A stretch of DNA of 38,336 bases from Fidelibacterota bacterium (GTDB lineage Bacteria > Fidelibacterota > Fidelibacteria > Fidelibacterales > Fidelibacteraceae), in the NCBI GenBank assembly GCA_034723415.1, contig JAYEOX010000115.1, positions 1 to 38,336 of the forward strand. The letters are read 5' to 3'. Below the pieces are notes generated by a model, which was not told the origin of the DNA, made no database searches, and saw only the letters and a program-made list of their open reading frames with translations. Below are positions 2,202 to 37,297 of the stretch, piece by piece. The number at the start of each line of letters is the position of its first letter. The stretch's first letter is position 1. The position numbers were made by a program, and so were the translations under genes.

Positions 2202-3581
2202 GTGAAAGAAGACCAAAAGACAATTAATAGAAAAATTTCATCATTTGCTGTTAATCTAAAATATGATGATTTACCAAGAAAAGTTATTGAACAGGCAAAA
2301 AGATTTTTATTTGATTCTATAGGATGTGCTTATGGGAGTATGAATACAAAAGATGTAAATATTATAAAAGACATTTATACAGAAATTGGTGGTAAAGAAG
2401 AAGCAACAATTATTGGATTTGGCAACAAAATTCCGGCTGTAAATGCTTCATTTTTAAATTCTTTAATGATCAGATCGTTGGATTTTAATGATATTTATTG
2501 GAAAGAAGATCCTTCACATCCATCTGATATAATTCCTGCTGCCTTATCATTAGGTGAAAAAGTAAATGCTTCAATGAAAGATGTGATTGTTGCTATTGTT
2601 TTAGGATATGAATTTGAACAACGATTATGTGAATTTGCAAAACCGGGATTAAGAGAAAGAAAATGGCATCACGCTACAATAACTCAATTCGTTTCACCTA
2701 TAGTTGCAGGAAAAATTCTAAATTTAAATATTGATCAAATGGTAAATGCAATTGGTATTAGTGGGAGTCATAATCATACAATTGGTTGTCCTACTGCTGG
2801 AAAATTAACAATGATGAAAAATACAGTTGACCCAATGGCGGTTCAATCCGGAGTATTTGCTGCTTTAATGGCAGAAAAAGGTTATACGGGCACAGAAGCG
2901 ATATTTGAAGGAAAGGAAGGGCTGATGGATGTATATGGCCCCGATTGGGATTTAAATGCTCTGTTTTCTGATTTAGGAAAAAAATTTAAAATAATGGAAT
3001 GTTCGATGAAAGCATTTCCTACCGAAGCATTAACCCATACACATATTAGTGCAACGATAGAATTAGTAAAAGAAAACTCAATTGATTATAATGATGTTGA
3101 TGAAATTACAATTACTACGATAGCACGAGCTGCTGATATTTTATTTGATCCTGAAAAATATAAACCGGATTCACGAGAGACAGCAGATCATAGTTTACCT
3201 TATTGTATTGCATGTGCAGTTATCGACAAGAAAATAACAAAAGAATCATTTACTGACGCTAATATTAAACGAAAAGAAATAAAAAAAGTAATAAATAAAA
3301 TCAAAGGTGAAGCATCTGAGGATTTTGAAAAAATATTTCCTGAAAAACAACCATCTCGTGTAAAAATAATAATGAAAAATGGAAAAATTTTTGAAAAATA
3401 TTTAGAATATCCGAAGGGAGATCCTCGTGAACCAATGAATTTAGAAGATTTGAGAATAAAATTCAATTCATTGATAGATAGTAATATTGAAATTAATAGA
3501 TTAAAAGAGATTGAAAATACGGTTTTTAGCTGTGAAAAATATAATTATGTTAATAATTTTATGAGAAAATTAGTTATTTAA
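2202..3581 (+). CDS. MmgE/PrpD family protein (2-methylcitrate dehydratase-like)
   Basis: LDFND, HPSD, WHH, ADHSLPY and PKGDP motifs; GTG start with GGAGG RBS. Confidence 0.9.
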   Translation: MKEDQKTINRKISSFAVNLKYDDLPRKVIEQAKRFLFDSIGCAYGSMNTKDVNIIKDIYTEIGGKEEATIIGFGNKIPAVNASFLNSLMIRSLDFNDIYWKEDPSHPSDIIPAALSLGEKVNASMKDVIVAIVLGYEFEQRLCEFAKPGLRERKWHHATITQFVSPIVAGKILNLNIDQMVNAIGISGSHNHTIGCPTAGKLTMMKNTVDPMAVQSGVFAALMAEKGYTGTEAIFEGKEGLMDVYGPDWDLNALFSDLGKKFKIMECSMKAFPTEALTHTHISATIELVKENSIDYNDVDEITITTIARAADILFDPEKYKPDSRETADHSLPYCIACAVIDKKITKESFTDANIKRKEIKKVINKIKGEASEDFEKIFPEKQPSRVKIIMKNGKIFEKYLEYPKGDPREPMNLEDLRIKFNSLIDSNIEINRLKEIENTVFSCEKYNYVNNFMRKLVI

Positions 3582-3684: not shown

Positions 3685-4464
3685 ATGAAGAATTTTTTGA
3701 AACTTTTGTTTGTTTTATCATTGGTGTTTTCTTTTTCGTTTTTGTTTGCGCAAGAAGAAACAAGTAGTGATGAAGAATTTCAACAACTTTTAGAAGAAGA
3801 AAATGTTGACACTGAAGAGGTAGAAGCTGTTGAAGAAGAGAGTAGTTTTCTTGACGAGGTTTCTGGTATTGAGGAAGAGGAAGAAACTGTAGAAGAAACT
3901 ACTGAAGTAGATACTTGGGGTATTAAAGCTTATGTAAATGTTGGACCAGTTGAACCTTGGGGTGATCCCGGAACCGGTCAATTATTTGATATGGGTTTTC
4001 ATTTCGGTGGTGGTGCTATTGTTAAACTTGCTAATTTTATTGATTTGCCGGCAGTATTAAATCCGTTAAATGTAGAAGGTTTAGTAAGCTATACAAGCTT
4101 TGCACAAAAAGATGACGGTGATGGAACAGCTAGTGTTATTGGTGTTGGAATAACACCTCGTTATGATGCAACTGATTTGATTTATGATGCACTTGATGTT
4201 GAACCTGTCGTTGGTGTTTTTGGATTATTAGGATTACGGTACAACTATCATTCTTGGGATAGTTATACAGGATTAGATTCAGAAAACGCATCATCTTTCG
4301 GTCTTGATATTGGAGCAGGAGTTAAATATAATATTAATGAATCTGTTGGATTGGATCTAAGATTTACACAAGGTCTATATATTATGTCAGATGTTGGAGA
4401 TTATGGCGACTATTCTCATGGAGAAAATGGGTTTCTTTTAGGTGTTACTTTTAAAATACAATAA
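3685..4464 (+). CDS. Outer-membrane beta-barrel protein (OmpA-like TM domain) with acidic N-terminal extension
   Basis: Signal peptide ending FLFA/Q, Glu/Asp-rich stretch, amphipathic strands 'FGLDIGAGVKYNINESVGLDLRF', terminal 'GVTFKIQ'; strong RBS. Confidence 0.75.
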   Translation: MKNFLKLLFVLSLVFSFSFLFAQEETSSDEEFQQLLEEENVDTEEVEAVEEESSFLDEVSGIEEEEETVEETTEVDTWGIKAYVNVGPVEPWGDPGTGQLFDMGFHFGGGAIVKLANFIDLPAVLNPLNVEGLVSYTSFAQKDDGDGTASVIGVGITPRYDATDLIYDALDVEPVVGVFGLLGLRYNYHSWDSYTGLDSENASSFGLDIGAGVKYNINESVGLDLRFTQGLYIMSDVGDYGDYSHGENGFLLGVTFKIQ

Positions 4465-4483: not shown

Positions 4484-4520
4484 TAAAAAAAGCTCTCAAT
4501 TTATTTGAGAGCTTTTTTTA
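4484..4520. terminator. Bidirectional rho-independent terminator
   Basis: taaaaaaagctctcaa-tttat-ttgagagcttttttta hairpin between convergent genes. Confidence 0.9.
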
Positions 4521-4538: not shown

Positions 4539-5456
4539 TTATATAGGTAATATTTTTTTAATTTTATCGTTTTTCAAAAAGGTATTTGCTAATTTATTTC
4601 CAATAGATTGGCTATTATTTTTAAATGTTTTTGTAATATTATCTTTGATAAAGATATCGCCTTCATTATTAGATAAAAACGCAGTTAAAGAAAGATCTTT
4701 GTCATTCATCTCTGCATAAGCGCCAACGGGATAATTATTATTAATATTTAATTTTGAGATGAATGCTCTTTCTGCGGTAACTGTATTATATGTTTCTTTG
4801 TCTAATATTGGTTGAAGTAATTCAATTATATCAAATCTATGACCTGAAGTTATTAATGCTGTGGCGCCTTGCCCTGCGGTCGGGATAAATTTATCTTTCT
4901 CCAAATCTACGGCAGTCGCTTTTGAAACATTTAGTCGTTTAATTATTATTTTGTCAAGAATAATTCCATTAAGTTTAAAATTTTTTAATTTGTAAATGCG
5001 GGATTTTACGTCACCATTTAAAATAACTAATCTTGTATTTGGATAATATTTTTTCATTAATGTAAAATTTCGTAAATTGCTAACTCCAACAACAAACTTT
5101 GGCAAGTCATCATCTATTTTAAGATCATTAAATGTTACAAATACATCTTCAGAATAGTCCCTTTTTATGTAGCCGGCAATAATCAACCCCGGGTCAATTG
5201 TATATGATAAATGTTTGGCATTGTGTACTGCTAACTGAATATCATTGTTCAATAATTGTTCCTCTATCTCTAAACTATAAGGTATATCTACAATTTCGTC
5301 ATTGAGCTGAAAATCATTATTACTTTGATCATCTGTTCTAATAATTTTAATACGAATATTTAGTTGAGGATATTGTGATTTTAACAATTCTTTAATATGA
5401 TTTGTTTGCCAAATAGCTAATTTGTCTTCATTTGTTGCAATTGTAATGTTTTTCAT
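4539..5456 (-). CDS. hemC: Hydroxymethylbilane synthase (HemC)-like protein, catalytic residues degenerate
   Basis: Colinear with HemC (LAIWQ, AVH, LR, KRL, GQGA, AERAF, PVGAYAE) but lacks the catalytic Asp and cofactor-binding Cys. Confidence 0.8.
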   Translation of the reverse strand: MKNITIATNEDKLAIWQTNHIKELLKSQYPQLNIRIKIIRTDDQSNNDFQLNDEIVDIPYSLEIEEQLLNNDIQLAVHNAKHLSYTIDPGLIIAGYIKRDYSEDVFVTFNDLKIDDDLPKFVVGVSNLRNFTLMKKYYPNTRLVILNGDVKSRIYKLKNFKLNGIILDKIIIKRLNVSKATAVDLEKDKFIPTAGQGATALITSGHRFDIIELLQPILDKETYNTVTAERAFISKLNINNNYPVGAYAEMNDKDLSLTAFLSNNEGDIFIKDNITKTFKNNSQSIGNKLANTFLKNDKIKKILPI

Positions 5457-5580
5457 TTTTACTCCTGATCATTACACTATTATGTATAATGAAATCCCAA
5501 AATTATATTATACTATTATAACCATATTTTAATATAATATAAATAATTGTAAAAATCTACTAAAATATTACTATAATTAA

Positions 5581-5611
5581 TAAAAAGGAAGTATTTTCTA
5601 CTTCCTTTTTA
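5581..5611 (-). terminator. Rho-independent terminator downstream of dnaK
   Basis: taaaaaggaagta-ttttc-tacttccttttta hairpin ending about 20 bp after the dnaK stop. Confidence 0.8.
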
Positions 5612-5631
5612 TATCAATATGATTGAAAATG

Positions 5632-7554
5632 TTATTTTTTCTTATCTTCGTCAACTACTTCATAGTCAGCATCTTCCACATTATCTTTCGATTTTGTATC
5701 TGCTGATTCGGATTTTGACTGTGATTGTTGATCTGTTTGATTTGTTTTATCTGTTTTTGTATTTTGATACATCTTTTCTGAGATTTTTGAAAAAGCTTGA
5801 GTAACTGCTTCTATTTTTGATTTTATCTCATTTGCGTCTTTACTATCTTTAACTTTTTCTAATTCCTCTAATGCGTCTTCAATAGGTTTTTTGTCTTCAT
5901 CAGAAATTTTATCTTTGAGTTCGTCAAGTTGTTTCTTTGTAGAAAATATTGTTTGTTCGGCTTGATTATGAGCATCGATTGTTTCTTTCCATTTTTTGTC
6001 TTCTTTTTCGTGTTCTTCAGCGTCTTTTTTCATATTTTCTATCTCGCTTTCCTTTAGTCCACTTGACGATTCAATTGTAATATGTTGTTCTTTGTTGGTA
6101 GCTTTATCTTTTGCGGAAACATTTAAAATTCCATTTGCATCAATATCAAATGAAACTTCTATTTGTGGTACTCCTCTTGGAGAAGGTGGAATTCCATCCA
6201 ATGTAAATCTTCCAAGTGTTCTATTACTGGTAGCTTGCGATCTTTCTCCTTGCAGAACATGTATTTCAACGGCAGGTTGATTGTCAGCAGCAGTACTGAA
6301 TATTTCTGTTTTCTTAGCCGGTATAGTTGTGTTTTTATCTAACAATTTTGTAGATACTCCACCTAGTGTTTCTATTCCCAATGATAATGGTATCACATCC
6401 AATAATAATACATCTTTTACATCACCTTGTAATACACCACCTTGAATTGCAGCTCCTAAAGCAACAACTTCATCCGGATTAACTGTTTTATTAGATTCTT
6501 TACCGAATATTTCTTTAACTAATTTTTGTACAGCAGGTATTCTTGTTGAACCTCCAACTAAAATAATTTCATCAATATTACCTTTTGAAACACCCGCATC
6601 TTTCATAGCATCTATACAAGGTTGTTTTGTTTTTTCCACTAAATCTTCTGTTAGTTGATCAAATTTGGCTCTGGAAATAGTAATATTTAAATGTTTTGGA
6701 CCACTGGAATCTGCTGTTAAATATGGTAAATTAATTTCTGTTTGTTTTGAGGTTGATAATTCCATTTTCGCTTTTTCTGCAGCATCTTTTAATCTCTGAA
6801 CAACCATTGGGTCTTTTGAAATATCAATGCCTTCCTGTTTTTTGTATTCTTTAATCAAATAATCAATCAATCGTTTGTCAAAATCATCTCCACCCAAATG
6901 TCCATCACCATTTGTAGATTTTACTTCAAATACACCTTCACCGATTTCAAGTATTGATATATCAAAAGTTCCACCTCCAAGATCGAAAACCGCTATTGTT
7001 TCATCTTTTTTCTTGTCTAAACCATAAGCTAAAGAAGCAGCTGTGGGTTCATTTATTATCCTTTTTACTTTCAAACCGGCAATCTTTCCCGCATCTTTTG
7101 TTGCCTGTCTTTGAGAATCATTGAAATATGCCGGGACTGTGATAACAGCTTCATCAACTTTTTCACCTAAATATTCTTCAGCTATTTGTTTTGCCTTTTG
7201 TAGGATCATTGCACTGATCTCCGGCGGTGAGTATTTTTTGTTATTTACATTAACGCGTACATCTCCATTTGAGCCCTTTTCAACTTTAAAAGGTACTTCG
7301 TGTATTTCTTGATCAACCTCTTTATGCATACGTCCCATAAATCTTTTAATACTGGATATAGTATTATTTGGATTTGTAATTGCCTGTCTTTTTGCACCTG
7401 TCCCAACTAATCTTTCACCTTCTTTTTTAAATGCAATAATTGACGGAGTAGTTCTTCCACCCTCCGAATTTAATAATATTTTTGGTTCCTTACCTTCTAT
7501 TATTGCTACACAAGAGTTGGTAGTACCTAAATCAATTCCTATTATTTTTCCCAT
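5632..7554 (-). CDS. dnaK: Molecular chaperone DnaK (Hsp70)
   Basis: [44 protein letters not shown] motifs; start reset to the ATG at 7554 (MGKIIG) behind a GGAGG RBS. Confidence 0.99.
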
Positions 7555-7600
7555 TTTTTCCTCCATTTTATTTTCAATTTTCATTTTCATTGAAGTATAG

Positions 7601-7617
7601 TGCAAATATTATGCCAA
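7601..7617 (-). promoter_or_regulatory. Putative sigma54 (-24/-12) promoter of dnaK
   Basis: Minus strand TTGGCATAATATTTGCA = GG-N10-GC with conserved flanks. Confidence 0.55.
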
Positions 7618-31473: not shown

Positions 31474-31554
31474 TTATAGTACTTTTTTTGTTTTATTTGA
31501 AAGTAAAATTTACTATATTTATAGAAGTAAAATTTAAAAGTGGGAGTTGTAATA

Positions 31555-32868
31555 TTGAAATTATCAACCTTTAAAAGTGGAATTCATCCGAAGAGTTATA
31601 AAGAATTCACTGATAAGAAAAAAATTGAAAAAATGCCGTTGCCGGATGAGATATTTGTTCCATTAAACTTGCATATTGGGAAACCGGCAAAACCGGTTGT
31701 GCAGAAAAAAGATGAGGTGAAAACCGGCCAAATTATTGCTGAAGCTGATGGATTTATTTCAAGTGCAATTCATTCACCGGTAACCGGAGTTGTTAAAAAA
31801 ATCGATGAATTTGATCATCCGGTTGGTATTCGTTCCACAATGATTCACATAAAAAGAACTGGCGAAGATGAGTGGGATTTAATTGATATTCCAAAAGATT
31901 GGAAAAATGTTGAAAGTGGTGAACTGCTTGAAATAGTTAAGAAAGCCGGAATCGTTGGACTTGGTGGAGCAACATTTCCGACTCATGTCAAATTATCACC
32001 ACCGGAAGAAAAATCGATTGATTCTTTTATTTTGAATGGAGCTGAGTGCGAACCATTTCTTAATGCCGATAATAGAATGATGCTTGAAAATACGGATAAG
32101 GTTCTGAAAGGCATGGAGATTACGATGAAAATTCTCAATGTAAAGAATGGATATATTGGAATTGAAAATAACAAACTCGATGCGATTGCAGAGATGAAAA
32201 AACGAGTTATGGAATTAAATTATGATTATAAGGTTATTCCACTGAAATTAAAATATCCTCAAGGTGCTGAAAAGATGTTGATTGATGCAATTCTAAAAAG
32301 AAAAGTGCCTGTTGGTGGACTTCCAATGGATGTTGGAGTTGTTGTCAATAATATAGGAACTATGATTGCGATTTTCGAAGCGGTGACGGAAGGAAAACCG
32401 CTGGTAGAACGAATTGTCACTGTATCAGGAAATGGAGTGAATGACCCGAAAAATATACTTGCAAGGATTGGAACGCCACTTGAGAAATTGATAGATTTTG
32501 CCGGTGGCTTGAAAGATGAAACCAATCTCGTTTATATGGGTGGTCCAATGATGGGAATTCCTCAGCACACGACTTCGGTGCCAATGATAAAAGCAACAAG
32601 CGGTGTAATTTGTTCCGTTGTTCCTATTGAAAAAGAAAAGGAATATCCTTGTATTCGGTGTGGAACTTGTATCAGAGTTTGTCCAATGAATTTAATGCCT
32701 ACAAAATTATCTCGTTTAGCGGAATTAGGTAGATATGATGAGTTAGGAAAATACGAAATACAAAGTTGTATCGAATGCGGTGCTTGTGCTTACTCCTGTC
32801 CTTCAAACATTCCATTGGTTCAATGGATAAGAGTTGGTAAGTTAAAATCCAATCAATTAGATAATTAA
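31555..32868 (+). CDS. rnfC: Rnf electron transport complex subunit C
   Basis: GIHP, GLGGATFPT, NGAECEP, YPQGAEK, MGGPMMG, two CxxCxxCxxxCP motifs; TTG start at 31555 behind GGGAG. Confidence 0.96.
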   Translation: MKLSTFKSGIHPKSYKEFTDKKKIEKMPLPDEIFVPLNLHIGKPAKPVVQKKDEVKTGQIIAEADGFISSAIHSPVTGVVKKIDEFDHPVGIRSTMIHIKRTGEDEWDLIDIPKDWKNVESGELLEIVKKAGIVGLGGATFPTHVKLSPPEEKSIDSFILNGAECEPFLNADNRMMLENTDKVLKGMEITMKILNVKNGYIGIENNKLDAIAEMKKRVMELNYDYKVIPLKLKYPQGAEKMLIDAILKRKVPVGGLPMDVGVVVNNIGTMIAIFEAVTEGKPLVERIVTVSGNGVNDPKNILARIGTPLEKLIDFAGGLKDETNLVYMGGPMMGIPQHTTSVPMIKATSGVICSVVPIEKEKEYPCIRCGTCIRVCPMNLMPTKLSRLAELGRYDELGKYEIQSCIECGACAYSCPSNIPLVQWIRVGKLKSNQLDN

Positions 32869-32891
32869 AAAAATAATAAACGGAAAAAATT

Positions 32892-33914
32892 ATGGAAGAA
32901 AAATCAAAAACAGCAAGTAAAAAATCAAAGAAAAAAGATCCGCGTGCAAAGTTAAAAAAGCCGGACAGAGAATCAATGTTATTAAGATCATCACCACATT
33001 TAAAAAGTGATTACAGTGTTAAAAAAATAATGAGAGGTGTACTATTTGCACTGTTACCAACTACAATACTTGGAGTTGTTTTTTTTGGTTGGCATGCTTT
33101 ATTAATGATTGGTGTTGGAATCGTTAGTTGTGTGTTGACCGAATTAATATTCAATTTAGTAAGTGGAAAGAAGTTTAAATTGACGGATGGCACTTCGGTT
33201 TTGACAGGATTATTATTGGTTTTGACATTGCCGCCTTCTTTTCCAATTCCCGGTGTAATTTTGGGAAGCGTAGTTGCGATTTTTATTGGTAAAATGATAT
33301 TCGGTGGTTTGGGTTATAACATTTTTAATCCGGCATTACTGGGAAGAGCTTTTTTGCAAGCAAGTTATCCTGTAAAGATGACTACATGGACTTTACCAAA
33401 ATTTGTTGGAACAGATGCGGTTACAGGGGCAACTCCTTTAGGATTATTTAAATTTGAACATATTATGACGAATATTAAGCCATTAATTTTAGGAAATGTT
33501 GGTGGGACGATTGGCGAAACATCTGCGATAGCTATCATACTTGGCGGGATTTTTATTCTAATTAAAAAGTATGCCGACTGGAGAATTCCTTTAAGTTATA
33601 TTGGAACCGTTTTTATACTTGGTGGAATTTTTTGGTTGATTGATCCTGCTCAATATCCAAATCCTGTTTTTCATATTTTTGCTGGTGGATTAATGTTGGG
33701 AGCATTTTTTATGGCAACTGATATGGTAACTTCTCCTGTTACACCAAAAGGCAGTTGGATATTTGGAATTGGAGCTGGTGTGGTTTTGATTACGATACGG
33801 CTTTTCGGAGGATTACCGGAAGGAGTGATGTATTCAATAATTTTTATGAATGGATTAGTTCCTCTTATTAATAGATATACACGACCAAAAGTATTTGGAG
33901 AGGTAAAAAAATGA
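32892..33914 (+). CDS. rnfD: Rnf subunit D
   Basis: SSPH, FGGLGYNIFNPA, DAVTGATPL (FMN-Thr), GETS, FMATD. Confidence 0.96.
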   Translation: MEEKSKTASKKSKKKDPRAKLKKPDRESMLLRSSPHLKSDYSVKKIMRGVLFALLPTTILGVVFFGWHALLMIGVGIVSCVLTELIFNLVSGKKFKLTDGTSVLTGLLLVLTLPPSFPIPGVILGSVVAIFIGKMIFGGLGYNIFNPALLGRAFLQASYPVKMTTWTLPKFVGTDAVTGATPLGLFKFEHIMTNIKPLILGNVGGTIGETSAIAIILGGIFILIKKYADWRIPLSYIGTVFILGGIFWLIDPAQYPNPVFHIFAGGLMLGAFFMATDMVTSPVTPKGSWIFGIGAGVVLITIRLFGGLPEGVMYSIIFMNGLVPLINRYTRPKVFGEVKK

Positions 33915-34486
33915 ACAAATCGCTGAAAATGATTTTGGTTTTAACTATTATTACAATTATTTCCGGATCTATATTATCTTATTGGGATAGTTTTACGAAG
34001 CCAATAATTAATGAATATAAAAGTAATAAATTAGATAAATTAATATTAGAAATTTTACCGGAACATAATTCTATTGAAGAATTGAAACTTGGTGAATATA
34101 ATTTATATATTGGTAAACTTGATGAAAAAATAGTTGGAATTGCATTTAAAGTTGAAGGTAGTGGATATCAAGATATTATTTCAATGATTGTTGGTGTAAC
34201 GCCGGACTTTTCTAAGATCACTGCTTTGAAAATATTAAGTCAAAAAGAGACGCCGGGTTTAGGAACTAAAATCGTTGAAGATCCGTCAAATAAAAATCCA
34301 TCTTGGTTTACAGAACAATTTAAAGATGTAAAAGTGGAACCGGAAATTATATATGTAAAAAATGCTAAGCCATCAAAAGACAATGAAATTCAAGCAATAA
34401 CGGGAGCAACAATTTCATCAAAATCAGTTGTAAATATTTTAAATACAAATATCGGTAAAGTGAAGAAGATGTATAATGAAAAATAA
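33911..34486 (+). CDS. rnfG: Rnf subunit G
   Basis: N-terminal TM, GYQ, ETPGLG, AITGATISS (FMN-Thr). Confidence 0.93.
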   Translation: MNKSLKMILVLTIITIISGSILSYWDSFTKPIINEYKSNKLDKLILEILPEHNSIEELKLGEYNLYIGKLDEKIVGIAFKVEGSGYQDIISMIVGVTPDFSKITALKILSQKETPGLGTKIVEDPSNKNPSWFTEQFKDVKVEPEIIYVKNAKPSKDNEIQAITGATISSKSVVNILNTNIGKVKKMYNEK

Positions 34487-34522
34487 TAAAATGAACCATA
34501 TATAAATAATAAAGGTGAATAT

Positions 34523-35137
34523 ATGTCACAAAAAAAAGTAACACTTTTTCAAGAATTCTTGAAGGGAATTTGGAAAGAAAATCCGATTCTTGTTTCGCTA
34601 TTGGGATTATGCCCGACACTTGCTGTTACAGTCTCAGCTGAGAATGGATTAGCTATGGGATTGGCATCAACTTTCGTAGTTATCAGTTCAAGTGTTTTTG
34701 TATCAATATTGAGAAAAATTATTCCTTCACAGGTTAGAATTGCAAGTTTTATTGTAATTATTGCAACATTTGTTACTATAGCAGATAGATTTTTAGCTGC
34801 ATATTATCCTGAAATTAGTAGTAGTTTGGGGCCATTTATTCCATTGATAATTGTGAATTGTATGATATTGGGAAGACAGGAAGCATTTGCTTCAAAGAAC
34901 AATATTGGGCGATCATTTTTGGATGCATTCGGTGTTGGAATTGGTTTTACAGTTGTATTAGTTTTATTGGGTGGAGTTAGAGAAATTCTTGGGTCGGGAA
35001 CTCTTTTTGGTGTCGAAGTAATGTGGAATAGTTTTCATCCATGGGCAGTGATGATATTGCCACCGGGAGCTTTTTTAGCTTTAGGTTTAATAATCGGTGC
35101 ATCAAATTGGTTAAATGAATTGGGGGAGAAAAAATGA
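34523..35137 (+). CDS. rnfE: Rnf subunit E
   Basis: ENP..LGLCPTLAVT, PLIIVNC, REILG, LPPGAF. Confidence 0.95.
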   Translation: MSQKKVTLFQEFLKGIWKENPILVSLLGLCPTLAVTVSAENGLAMGLASTFVVISSSVFVSILRKIIPSQVRIASFIVIIATFVTIADRFLAAYYPEISSSLGPFIPLIIVNCMILGRQEAFASKNNIGRSFLDAFGVGIGFTVVLVLLGGVREILGSGTLFGVEVMWNSFHPWAVMILPPGAFLALGLIIGASNWLNELGEKK

Positions 35138-35706
35138 ATTTAATAATTATTTTTATATCAGCTGCTTTAATAAATAACTTTGTCTTAATTCAATTTTTGG
35201 GGATTTGTCCATTTGTTGGAGTTTCAAAAAAAATGGATTCGGCAGTAAGTATGGGGCTTGCAGTTACTTTTGTGATGGTAATAAGTGCAGCTGTAACTTG
35301 GTTGATCTATAATTTGATTTTAGTTCCTTTTGAAATGCAAATTTTGGAATATGTTTCATTCATTTTGGTTATCGCTTCATTAGTTCAATTAGTAGAAATG
35401 TTCATAAGAAAAGTTAGTAAGCCATTATACGATTCGTTAGGAATTTTTCTTCCACTGATAACAACAAATTGTGCAATTTTGGGATTGGCATTAATTTCGG
35501 TGTTACGAGATTATAGTTTTATTGAAAGTGTAATCTTTGGAGTTGGCGCCGGAGTTGGATTTACTTTAGCATTAGTAATTATGGCTGGAATAAGAGAGGA
35601 ATTAGAATTAGCTCCTGTCCCAAAACATTTTAAAGGTGCGGGCATCACGATGATAGTTGCCGGTTGTTTGGGATTGGCGTTTATGGGGTTTTCAGGACTA
35701 ATTTAA
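35134..35706 (+). CDS. rnfA: Rnf subunit A
   Basis: NNFVL..FLGICP, MGLAV, LGIFLPLITTNCAILG, GIRE. Confidence 0.96.
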   Translation: MNLIIIFISAALINNFVLIQFLGICPFVGVSKKMDSAVSMGLAVTFVMVISAAVTWLIYNLILVPFEMQILEYVSFILVIASLVQLVEMFIRKVSKPLYDSLGIFLPLITTNCAILGLALISVLRDYSFIESVIFGVGAGVGFTLALVIMAGIREELELAPVPKHFKGAGITMIVAGCLGLAFMGFSGLI

Positions 35707-35740
35707 AAAATATTATGGAATGTTTAATTAAGAATTTATA

Positions 35741-36454
35741 ATGGGTAATAAGAAAATAAGAAATATAACAATTATTTTTTTAATCTTTTTTTTAGTAAGT
35801 ATTAAATTTGTTTACGCAAATGAAGGATTTAAAGATTTAAGTGTATCAATTAACACATCTTGGAATAGTAAATATTTTTCCGAAGGTAGAAATAATTTAA
35901 ATGATGGAGGAATGTTCGTTATTGGATCAAATTTTGGTTTAAATGGATTCTCTATTGGTTCTTGGCTTGGAATAGGCGATACTGAAGATTATCAGGAATT
36001 ACAAATGTTTATTCAATATGGGAAAAAAATCTCAAATTTTGATTTATATATTCAATATCAAAGATTAAGATTTTTTAAAAGTAAAAAAAATGATAACGAA
36101 TTAGGTGTGGGTATAGCATATTCAAAATATCCTTTGTTATTGCCGTCAATTGATTATGTATATTCAACAGAATCTGAAGGAGCATATCTTTATTGTACAG
36201 TTAAATCTAATATAAATATAACTGAAAATTTCTCTTTTTCCCCATATTTATTAGAAGGAATAGATCTTGGATATGCCTCACAAAAATATGATGGTTTTAA
36301 TAATTTTCAAATTGGAATTGAAGCAATTTTTTCTTTAACAAATAAAATTAATTTGAATAGTAGTATTGCTTATAGTTGGGCGCAGGAAGATGTTAACAGA
36401 ACTAATGGTAAAGACCAATTTTGGGGTAATGTGGGAGTATCTTTTGAATTTTAA
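35741..36454 (+). CDS. Putative outer-membrane beta-barrel protein
   Basis: Signal peptide ending VYA, aromatic/Gly-rich alternating strands, C-terminal 'GVSFEF' BamA-type signature. Confidence 0.7.
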   Translation: MGNKKIRNITIIFLIFFLVSIKFVYANEGFKDLSVSINTSWNSKYFSEGRNNLNDGGMFVIGSNFGLNGFSIGSWLGIGDTEDYQELQMFIQYGKKISNFDLYIQYQRLRFFKSKKNDNELGVGIAYSKYPLLLPSIDYVYSTESEGAYLYCTVKSNINITENFSFSPYLLEGIDLGYASQKYDGFNNFQIGIEAIFSLTNKINLNSSIAYSWAQEDVNRTNGKDQFWGNVGVSFEF

Positions 36455-36487
36455 CTTGATGATAAATTATAATATAAAAGGATAACT

Positions 36488-37297
36488 ATGGAAATAAATT
36501 CATTATTAATTGCAGCAGGAAGTATGGGTGGATTAGGATTGATCTTTTCAATTGGATTGGCAATTGCAGATAAAAAATTACATGTAGAAGAAGATCCAAA
36601 AATCTCTCAAATACATGAAGTACTTCCAGGTGCAAACTGTGGTGCTTGTGGATTTCCGGGTTGCGGAGCTTTTGCTGAAAATGTTGTAAGTGGGAAAGCA
36701 GAATACAATGGATGCCCTGTTGGTGGACCTGAAGTTGCAGAAGAAATTGCGAAAATATTGGGAATAGATGCCGGTAATTCTGAAAGAATGGTAGCACAAG
36801 TTATGTGTCAAGGTGGAGATGCAGAAACAGCAAGAAAGGCGACTTACGATGGAATAAAGACATGCACAGCAGCAACATTAATAAGTAAAGGAGAAAAATT
36901 TTGTGAATATGGCTGCATCGGATATGGCGATTGTGTAGATGCTTGTCAATTTGATGCAATGTATATGAATGACAATGGATTACCAGTTGTGATAGAAGAT
37001 AAGTGTGTTGGATGTGGTGAATGTGTAAAAGCGTGTCCGCAAGGAATTATGGAAATGCATCCCATTAGTCATAAAGTTTTATTAAGATGTAAGAACGAAG
37101 ACAAGATCCTTTTCGCTAGACAAGTTTGTACAAGAGCTTGTATTGGATGTGGAATATGTGTTAGAGAAGCAGGAGAAGGTAAATTAACAATGTCAAATAA
37201 TTTAGCAAGAATTGATTATGAAAAATTCGGTGATGATACAAAAATTCCAACAGAAAAATGTCCTGGTAAATGTTTTACAAGTTCAGGTGAAATTTAA
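36488..37297 (+). CDS. rnfB: Rnf subunit B
   Basis: N-terminal TM, LPGANCGACGFPGC, CPVGG, several ferredoxin Cys motifs. Confidence 0.95.
   Translation: MEINSLLIAAGSMGGLGLIFSIGLAIADKKLHVEEDPKISQIHEVLPGANCGACGFPGCGAFAENVVSGKAEYNGCPVGGPEVAEEIAKILGIDAGNSERMVAQVMCQGGDAETARKATYDGIKTCTAATLISKGEKFCEYGCIGYGDCVDACQFDAMYMNDNGLPVVIEDKCVGCGECVKACPQGIMEMHPISHKVLLRCKNEDKILFARQVCTRACIGCGICVREAGEGKLTMSNNLARIDYEKFGDDTKIPTEKCPGKCFTSSGEI

Follow-up and report, generated by a model that had tools for sequence, protein, structure and literature searches.

The closest described relative of the protein reported here is hydroxymethylbilane synthase (HMBS, or HemC; PDB 1ah5 and 1ypn), which is commonly treated as a single-purpose enzyme and as a marker for tetrapyrrole synthesis. 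In the parts of PMC8561815 drawn on here, Asp84 is described as the catalytic residue and Cys242 as the link to the cofactor. Likewise, parts of PMC7959689 report that the E. coli variants D84A and D84N form no product, that R11L and R11H retain 1.4–3.9% activity and the human variant S28N 0.8%, and list the substrate and pyrrole sites of the enzyme. A second point of comparison is the type-2 periplasmic-binding-protein (PBP2) fold of solute-binding proteins, of LysR effector domains such as those of CcpE and OxyR, and of the BvgS and EvgS sensors, in which ligands are bound non-covalently by a two-lobed clamp. Other proteins with this fold are enzymes, including MqnA, MqnD and cyclohexadienyl dehydratase.

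Here we describe a HemC homologue, identified as such by descent and fold, which nevertheless fails the defining residues and context of the enzyme and should therefore not be filed as HemC. Named homologues put the source genome in Marinimicrobia/Fidelibacterota (Marinisomatota). The bacterial group concerned (class AB16) consists of peptidoglycan-auxotrophic anaerobes according to PMC11652737, in which haem goes unmentioned. Within the literature searched, which excluded subscription journals and supplements, no such protein is described, and the passages of PMC13564367 on moonlighting concern PBG synthase alone.

An intact HemC-derived gene with no hem neighbours

The window, meaning the whole 38,336-nt stretch of DNA that was analysed, is contig C115 of genome G000 (1.94 Mb, 94% complete). 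The HemC-derived gene reads from 5456 to 4539 on the minus strand in a frame free of stops and frameshifts (Table 1). Its product matches PF01379 over residues 4–203 (E 7.6e-34) and PF03900 over residues 225–294 (E 5.4e-12), passes the TIGR00212 cut-off (189.5 bits against 164), and contains no hydrophobic segment. The closest profile matches are HemCs of the same phylum, the ESM Atlas matches are to PBG-deaminase clusters only, and the HMBS motifs LxxWQ, GQG and ER persist. The first-pass annotation of this DNA had claimed an intact 305-aa reading frame aligning with HemC from end to end, and the matches to both Pfam domains and to TIGR00212 bear this out. It was also correct that no hem gene lies nearby, that the terminator is shared with the neighbouring gene, and that the listed substitutions are real when the protein is aligned to the E. 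coli HMBS chains. The complete absence of Cys, to which it also drew attention, is true but weak alone, and 15% of the 343 open reading frames of 250–350 aa in G000 are Cys-free.

Table 1. Features of the locus, with positions in the window.
Feature	Position	Strand	Basis
HemC-derived gene, 305 aa, three HMBS domains, lacking D84 and C242	4539..5456	-	domain matches, alignment, model
His82 codon, site of catalytic Asp84	5211..5213	-	alignment to E. coli HMBS
Asn240 codon, site of cofactor-bearing Cys242	4737..4739	-	alignment to E. coli HMBS
Asn79 codon (Ser81 in HemC), new residue, fixed in 20/20 family members examined	5220..5222	-	
Asn127 codon (Ser129 in HemC), new residue, fixed in 20/20 family members examined	5076..5078	-	
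Shine-Dalgarno-like AGGAG, 5 nt 5' of ATG; AGGA in 5/5 g1 members	5462..5466	-	
Sigma-70-like promoter candidate TTTATA-17-TATAAT, weak	5515..5543	-	
Terminator-like hairpin 3' of dnaK, between dnaK and the HemC-derived gene	5580..5612	-	z -4.98
Bidirectional terminator-like hairpin, common to the HemC-derived gene and the convergent beta-barrel gene	4484..4520	.	z -8.0, -6.4
Convergent neighbour, outer-membrane beta-barrel protein (PF13505)	3685..4464	+	domain match
Upstream neighbour dnaK, g1 only	5632..7605	-	

In what follows, g1 denotes the window's own genus, g3 the second genus that carries the gene, and g2 a third genus of the family. The ribosome-binding site and terminators around the gene are conserved, with the stem of the dnaK-proximal hairpin preserved in 5/5 g1 members, and the gene is likely to be monocistronic. 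The promoter candidate is weak because comparable sites occur at chance level in this AT-rich region (16 found, 14.5 expected). A similar convergent beta-barrel gene adjoins the orthologues in both g1 and g3, which probably reflects synteny and not function. Upstream neighbours differ between the genera, and none of the neighbours points to a ligand or partner. A functional link to dnaK was rejected, since a terminator belonging to dnaK lies between the two genes and dnaK is adjacent in g1 only, as was a link to prpD, which is present in g2, where the HemC-derived gene is missing, and truncated in some carriers.

Several other features of these loci were recorded. The MmgE/PrpD-family gene at 2202–3581 of the window has its full length of 459 aa. 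Truncated orthologues of 91–117 aa occur in one g1 lineage (L044:7451-7723, L100:5913-6263 and L101:2717-3067), and G002 has no such gene at this site. Some outer-membrane barrel genes adjoining prpD (L006:1-699 and L054:2030-3007) bear an N-terminal segment, which we take to resemble an acyl-carrier-protein helix bundle; the L054 barrel protein has no Pfam match. In g3, a conserved AT-rich element (L007:2290-2560 and orthologous regions) lies about 170 nt ahead of the HemC-derived gene and directly 5' of a TTGAT promoter-like box, with the core AATATATTAAA in 5/5 and a 14-bp palindrome in 3/5, and may be an operator or UP element. The window also contains, at 31540–37297, a cluster that from its translations is presumably rnfCDGEAB.

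The catalytic and cofactor residues are lost and the cleft appears remodelled

Residues were assigned by aligning the window protein to the E. coli HMBS chains 1ypn and 1ah5. Besides the loss of Asp84 and Cys242, this alignment gives R11>N9, S13>D11, TRGD>TDDQ, the replacement of the lid sequence GGKGLF by IVDIPY, and the loss of the basic residues R132 (N130) and R149 (N147). Further changes in the cleft, beyond those listed in the first-pass annotation, are S81>N79, S129>N127, N151>D149 and A170>D168, while Q19, K83, R131, R155 and R176 are retained. For comparison we used 139 HemCs, namely those rows of a 161-row alignment with D84 and a Cys, so that counts at these two positions are circular whereas those at other positions are not. 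All 139 carry R11, S13, S81, K83, S129, R131, R132, R149, N151, R155 and R176, and the departure of the window protein from HemC is therefore beyond chance. These HemCs are at least 95% invariant in 41 columns, 22 of which the window protein retains; across 20 distinct family sequences, 10 of the 41 are lost in every member and 13 kept in every member.

These losses are common to the whole family. The D84 position is His, Asn or Tyr in 20/20 distinct sequences and never Asp, and the C242 position is Asn, Asp, Pro or Ser in 20/20 and never Cys. Just two of the eight substrate-site residues R11, S13, Q19, S81, D84, R149, N151 and R155 are kept (Q19 and R155), by a list taken from the available parts of PMC7959689 in human numbering, with part of the E. 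coli mapping inferred by offset. Basic residues in the cleft fall from seven in HemC to between two and four in the family, half of them being gone in all members, and acidic residues rise from one to two or three. New residues have also become established: at three of the ten columns lost throughout, N79, N127 and S152 are fixed across g1 and g3, genera that are only ~37% identical, and acidic or amide residues occupy positions 11 (Asp or Asn) and 168 (acidic) across the family, in which 53 of 300 positions are invariant. This pattern suggests that the cleft was remodelled in an ancestor and has been maintained since. As a homologue of an enzyme family without the essential catalytic residues the protein is a probable pseudoenzyme, and we regard the loss of HMBS activity as virtually certain.

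The family has two forms and probably no tetrapyrrole pathway around it

Orthologues were found in 5/5 g1 genomes (67–86% identical to the window protein) and 6/6 g3 genomes (36–41%) and in 0/22 g2 genomes; named homologues include those of records TCS52 (86% identical) and 46_43 (39% identical). All 11 carrier frames are open, one of them losing its 5' end where the contig stops. The gene is the sole PF01379 match in G000, as in every one of the 11 carriers, and a search of 33 family genomes found no canonical HemC. The suggestion that the protein is the partner of a real HemC can therefore be largely discarded, and regulation of an active paralogue, a common mode of pseudoenzyme action, is ruled against by the same absence.

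The rest of the early pathway was not found either. Neither hemA nor hemB was detected in 25 family genomes (two of them single-contig), and hemD exceeded the cut-off in none of the 25, the one fragment scoring below it being from g2. By comparison, in a set of 16 genomes from outside the family the same nine possess hemC, hemB, hemA and hemD. A tblastn search of G000 with the hem operons of three relatives returned no hemA, hemB, hemD, hemE or hemH; for hemY/G and hemL it gave nothing beyond weak cross-hits. G000 does contain weak, partial URO-D matches, which, given that HemE found nothing by tblastn, are probably relatives of the URO-D fold and not HemE; PF13241 gave weak Rossmann cross-hits only.

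The sister family has a working hemC inside a hem operon. PF01379 is present in 55 of 301 phylum genomes, and of 32 checked among the 44 such genomes outside the family, the HSxKD motif is present in 31, the remaining one being clipped by a contig end; a Cys-loop pattern matched 28 of these 32 and missed four. Among the genomes checked, the dead form of HemC thus appears confined to this family. In profile searches (1.84 billion representatives; 90% set) only the family's two forms scored above a wide gap, and D84 was present in every one of 242 further top homologues having a residue at that column, a sample limited to the 150 highest-scoring of 13,772 matches and the 120 highest-scoring of 2,807, and hence compatible with dead HemCs at greater distance. 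One of the 242, P0271, lacks the cofactor Cys. The second form is represented in culture by Fidelibacter multiformis, whose protein WP_400167688.1 (P0410) is annotated as hydroxymethylbilane synthase and is 39% identical to the window protein, with VHNALN at the catalytic motif and a Cys-free cofactor loop.

Other unusual HemC homologues were noted in passing. P0271, P0012 and P0095 are unrelated to the family and have D84 without the cofactor Cys; P0271, which groups outside the dead-HemC family, also has S13>N, S81>A, S129>G, R149>K and R176>F. Long, divergent HemCs of 503–506 aa with intact D84 and Cys motifs (L087:3623-5131, L088:3241-4758 and L089:3158-4672) occur in hem-like clusters in other families of the phylum and are probably HemC fusions of different origin.

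The dead HemC sequences form one clade (SH-aLRT 99–100) in what are quick trees with composition bias flagged, and these trees point firmly to a single origin before the split of g1 and g3. The position of the clade among working HemCs varies, being sister to the HemC of the order at a support of 74 in one tree and outside it in another. A single-gene PrpD tree places g1 and g2 as sisters with g3 outside (98/98); if this is the species tree, HemC was already dead in the ancestor of the family and was later lost in g2. No remnant was detected in five g2 genomes with the family profile (E<=0.1, in a search without a positive control), nor at the syntenic site in four g2 genomes.

The gene is under strong purifying selection

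Pairwise dN/dS values (NG86) were 0.12–0.25 in all 10 g1 pairs and 0.04–0.09 in the six unsaturated pairs of 15 in g3, where eight pairs were saturated and one had a dS of 3.0. Maximum-likelihood estimates were 0.070 for g1 and 0.055 for g3 as against 0.114 for five working HemCs, and the HemC-derived gene is under strong purifying selection in both genera. Compared with the median of neighbouring genes it had a dN/dS of 0.115 against near 0.11 for G000–G001 (16 genes), 0.196 against about 0.11 for G000–G002 (13 genes), a hint of looser constraint, and 0.085 against about 0.07 for G010–G006 (12 genes). Constraint thus falls within the span of the neighbours' values, ordinary to slightly relaxed and never neutral. 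The adjacent prpD-like gene has been cut to 91–117 aa in G001, L100 and L101, and the HemC-derived gene is whole there.

The first-pass interpretation of a repurposed and not a decaying gene accordingly stands, with 11/11 intact copies in two genera, pairwise values of 0.04–0.25 and maximum-likelihood values of 0.055–0.07, even as its idea of a HemC partner falls. Its other idea, a ligand sensor, is a conjecture, with a cleft that is conserved in g3 but not specially so in g1. A selected protein function almost certainly exists.

The predicted structure combines the HMBS fold with unequal pocket conservation

A model predicted from a 134-row alignment (pLDDT 90.3, pTM 0.88) has a disordered lid and superimposes on 1ah5 with a Z of 36.4, an rmsd of 2.0 Å over 291 residues and a TM of 0.88. 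Because 119 of the 134 rows are not family members and are mostly canonical HemC, this test of the HMBS fold is partly circular, and an alignment of the family only gave a poor model (pLDDT 49). With that proviso, the protein matches HMBS over its full length in sequence and in its predicted three-domain fold; it differs in the missing Asp84 and Cys242, in the replaced lid, and in the lack of a hem operon and of any upstream or downstream pathway enzyme found in G000.

After HMBS, the model most resembles ligand-binding PBP2 proteins and the effector domains of LysR regulators (Z 12.1 and lower), and one dehydratase-like solute-binding protein is among the matches. The two-lobed clamp of the model is predicted to be common to these systems and the BvgS/EvgS sensors (Z 10–12), and non-covalent binding would be the mode of action of the HemC-derived protein as it is of theirs. 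Unlike them, it is of HemC descent, retains domain 3 of HMBS, and has no signal or membrane segment, DNA-binding domain, or transporter or kinase neighbour; likeness to the PBP2 fold in itself demonstrates no function.

Conservation of the pocket differs between the two forms. In g3 the share of invariant columns is 79% among the 19 of the pocket and 50% in the background, while in g1 the figure is 42% against 52%, so that the pocket is not specially conserved there, and the lids of g1 and g3 are only 7% identical. A cleft ligand may be restricted to g3, or g1 and g3 may have evolved forms with different functions.

Possible functions

The explanation that we favour, with modest confidence, is that the protein is a soluble, non-catalytic binder of either a small metabolite or a protein partner. 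It would be what is left of HemC in a lineage where searches did not recover the other early genes of the haem pathway, would make no hydroxymethylbilane, and would be expressed alone from its own promoter. Domains 1 and 2 are predicted to form a Venus-flytrap clamp of the PBP2 type, on the floor of which Q17, H78, N79, N127, R174 and Q196-G197, together with the new acidic residues 11 and 168, would make up the remodelled cleft. Such a cleft may hold, non-covalently, a ligand smaller and less anionic than a polypyrrole, and closure of the clamp or a conserved surface would pass a signal or cargo to a partner. The pocket of g1 and the unrelated lids of the two genera would argue against a shared cleft ligand, and the 22 g2 genomes, which live without the gene, also weigh against this explanation.

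The sequence data suit a new enzyme activity nearly as well as they do such a binder. Here the cleft would have been reshaped to catalyse some other reaction of a small metabolite without a cofactor, as might be read from the fixed polar residues N79 and N127, the acidic residue at 168 and Asp or Asn at 11, set beside invariant H78, Q17 and R174, from the tightly conserved pocket of g3, and from a dN/dS as low as in working HemC. The former catalytic position, however, varies between His, Asn and Tyr within g1, no new invariant acid, base or nucleophile other than ancestral H78 is common to g1 and g3, and no metabolic gene cluster surrounds the gene, which leaves this explanation possible but fairly unlikely. 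We consider it improbable that a tetrapyrrole auxotroph has kept a pyrrole-binding scaffold as a haem or corrinoid salvage factor, for holding or trafficking scavenged tetrapyrroles. The family does lack tetrapyrrole synthesis while having B12-binding domains (in 5/5 genomes tested) and HemW-like genes in all three genera and SdhC/D in g3, and some carboxylate-binding basic residues persist in the cleft. Against this, the distribution of the gene does not track haem users: SdhC/D is present in 0/5 g1 genomes, which have the gene, and in 22/22 g2 genomes, which do not. Cytochrome bd, catalase and haem peroxidase were not above the cut-off in five genomes each, none of the eight single-CXXCH reading frames of G000 appears cytochrome-like at its N-terminus, and the cleft has exchanged basic for acidic residues. 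Co-variation was examined with SdhC/D, cytochrome bd, catalase, peroxidase, B12-binding domains, HemW-like genes and ferrochelatase (in five genomes per marker, except for SdhC/D and HemW-like genes), and none tracks the gene; the SdhC/D membrane anchors as such divide the family into 0/5 g1 genomes and 28/28 genomes of g2 and g3.

Slow decay of a pseudogene or neutral relic might be suspected from the long branches to g1 and g3, the loss in g2 and the variable pocket of g1. It is rejected because the maximum-likelihood dN/dS of 0.055–0.07 lies below that of working HemC (0.11); moreover, no unsaturated pair comes anywhere near a dN/dS of 1 (bootstrap upper bounds reach 0.34 at most), the copies in 11/11 genomes are unbroken except by one contig end, the ribosome-binding site and terminators are conserved, and in g3 the protein is still more than 70% identical where synonymous sites are saturated. 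We judge decay very improbable, and would give even less credence to the protein being an HMBS with an unusual active site or the regulatory subunit of a real HemC. Its score above the TIGR00212 cut-off, the name hydroxymethylbilane synthase in public records and the fold retained in the predicted model are points in favour of this reading, but there is neither D84 nor a Cys in the cofactor loop, no supply of PBG (hemB in 0/25), no HemD downstream, and no second HemC in any carrier.

Implications

The protein belongs to a HemC-derived family, real and under selection, whose members are probably pseudoenzymes, carry the wrong annotation in databases and occur in a cultured species. Since its members pass the HemC cut-off and are annotated as HemC, including in Fidelibacter multiformis, the cultured type species of the phylum, pathway reconstructions would wrongly score a haem step in these organisms. 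A more general proposal, which we think doubtful, is that HemC has a hidden second, non-catalytic function that alone is retained whenever a lineage drops tetrapyrrole synthesis, with this family and the Cys-less P0271 among the independent cases; if it were true, the cultured F. multiformis would make such a cryptic function directly testable.

The family offers a natural case in which an enzyme has outlasted the entire pathway it served, with selection no weaker than that on the working enzyme, and its two diverged forms, one of them in a culturable host, capture successive stages in the remodelling of an active site. Should dead HemCs recur independently, they would point to a second role, so far hidden, for an enzyme that is universal.
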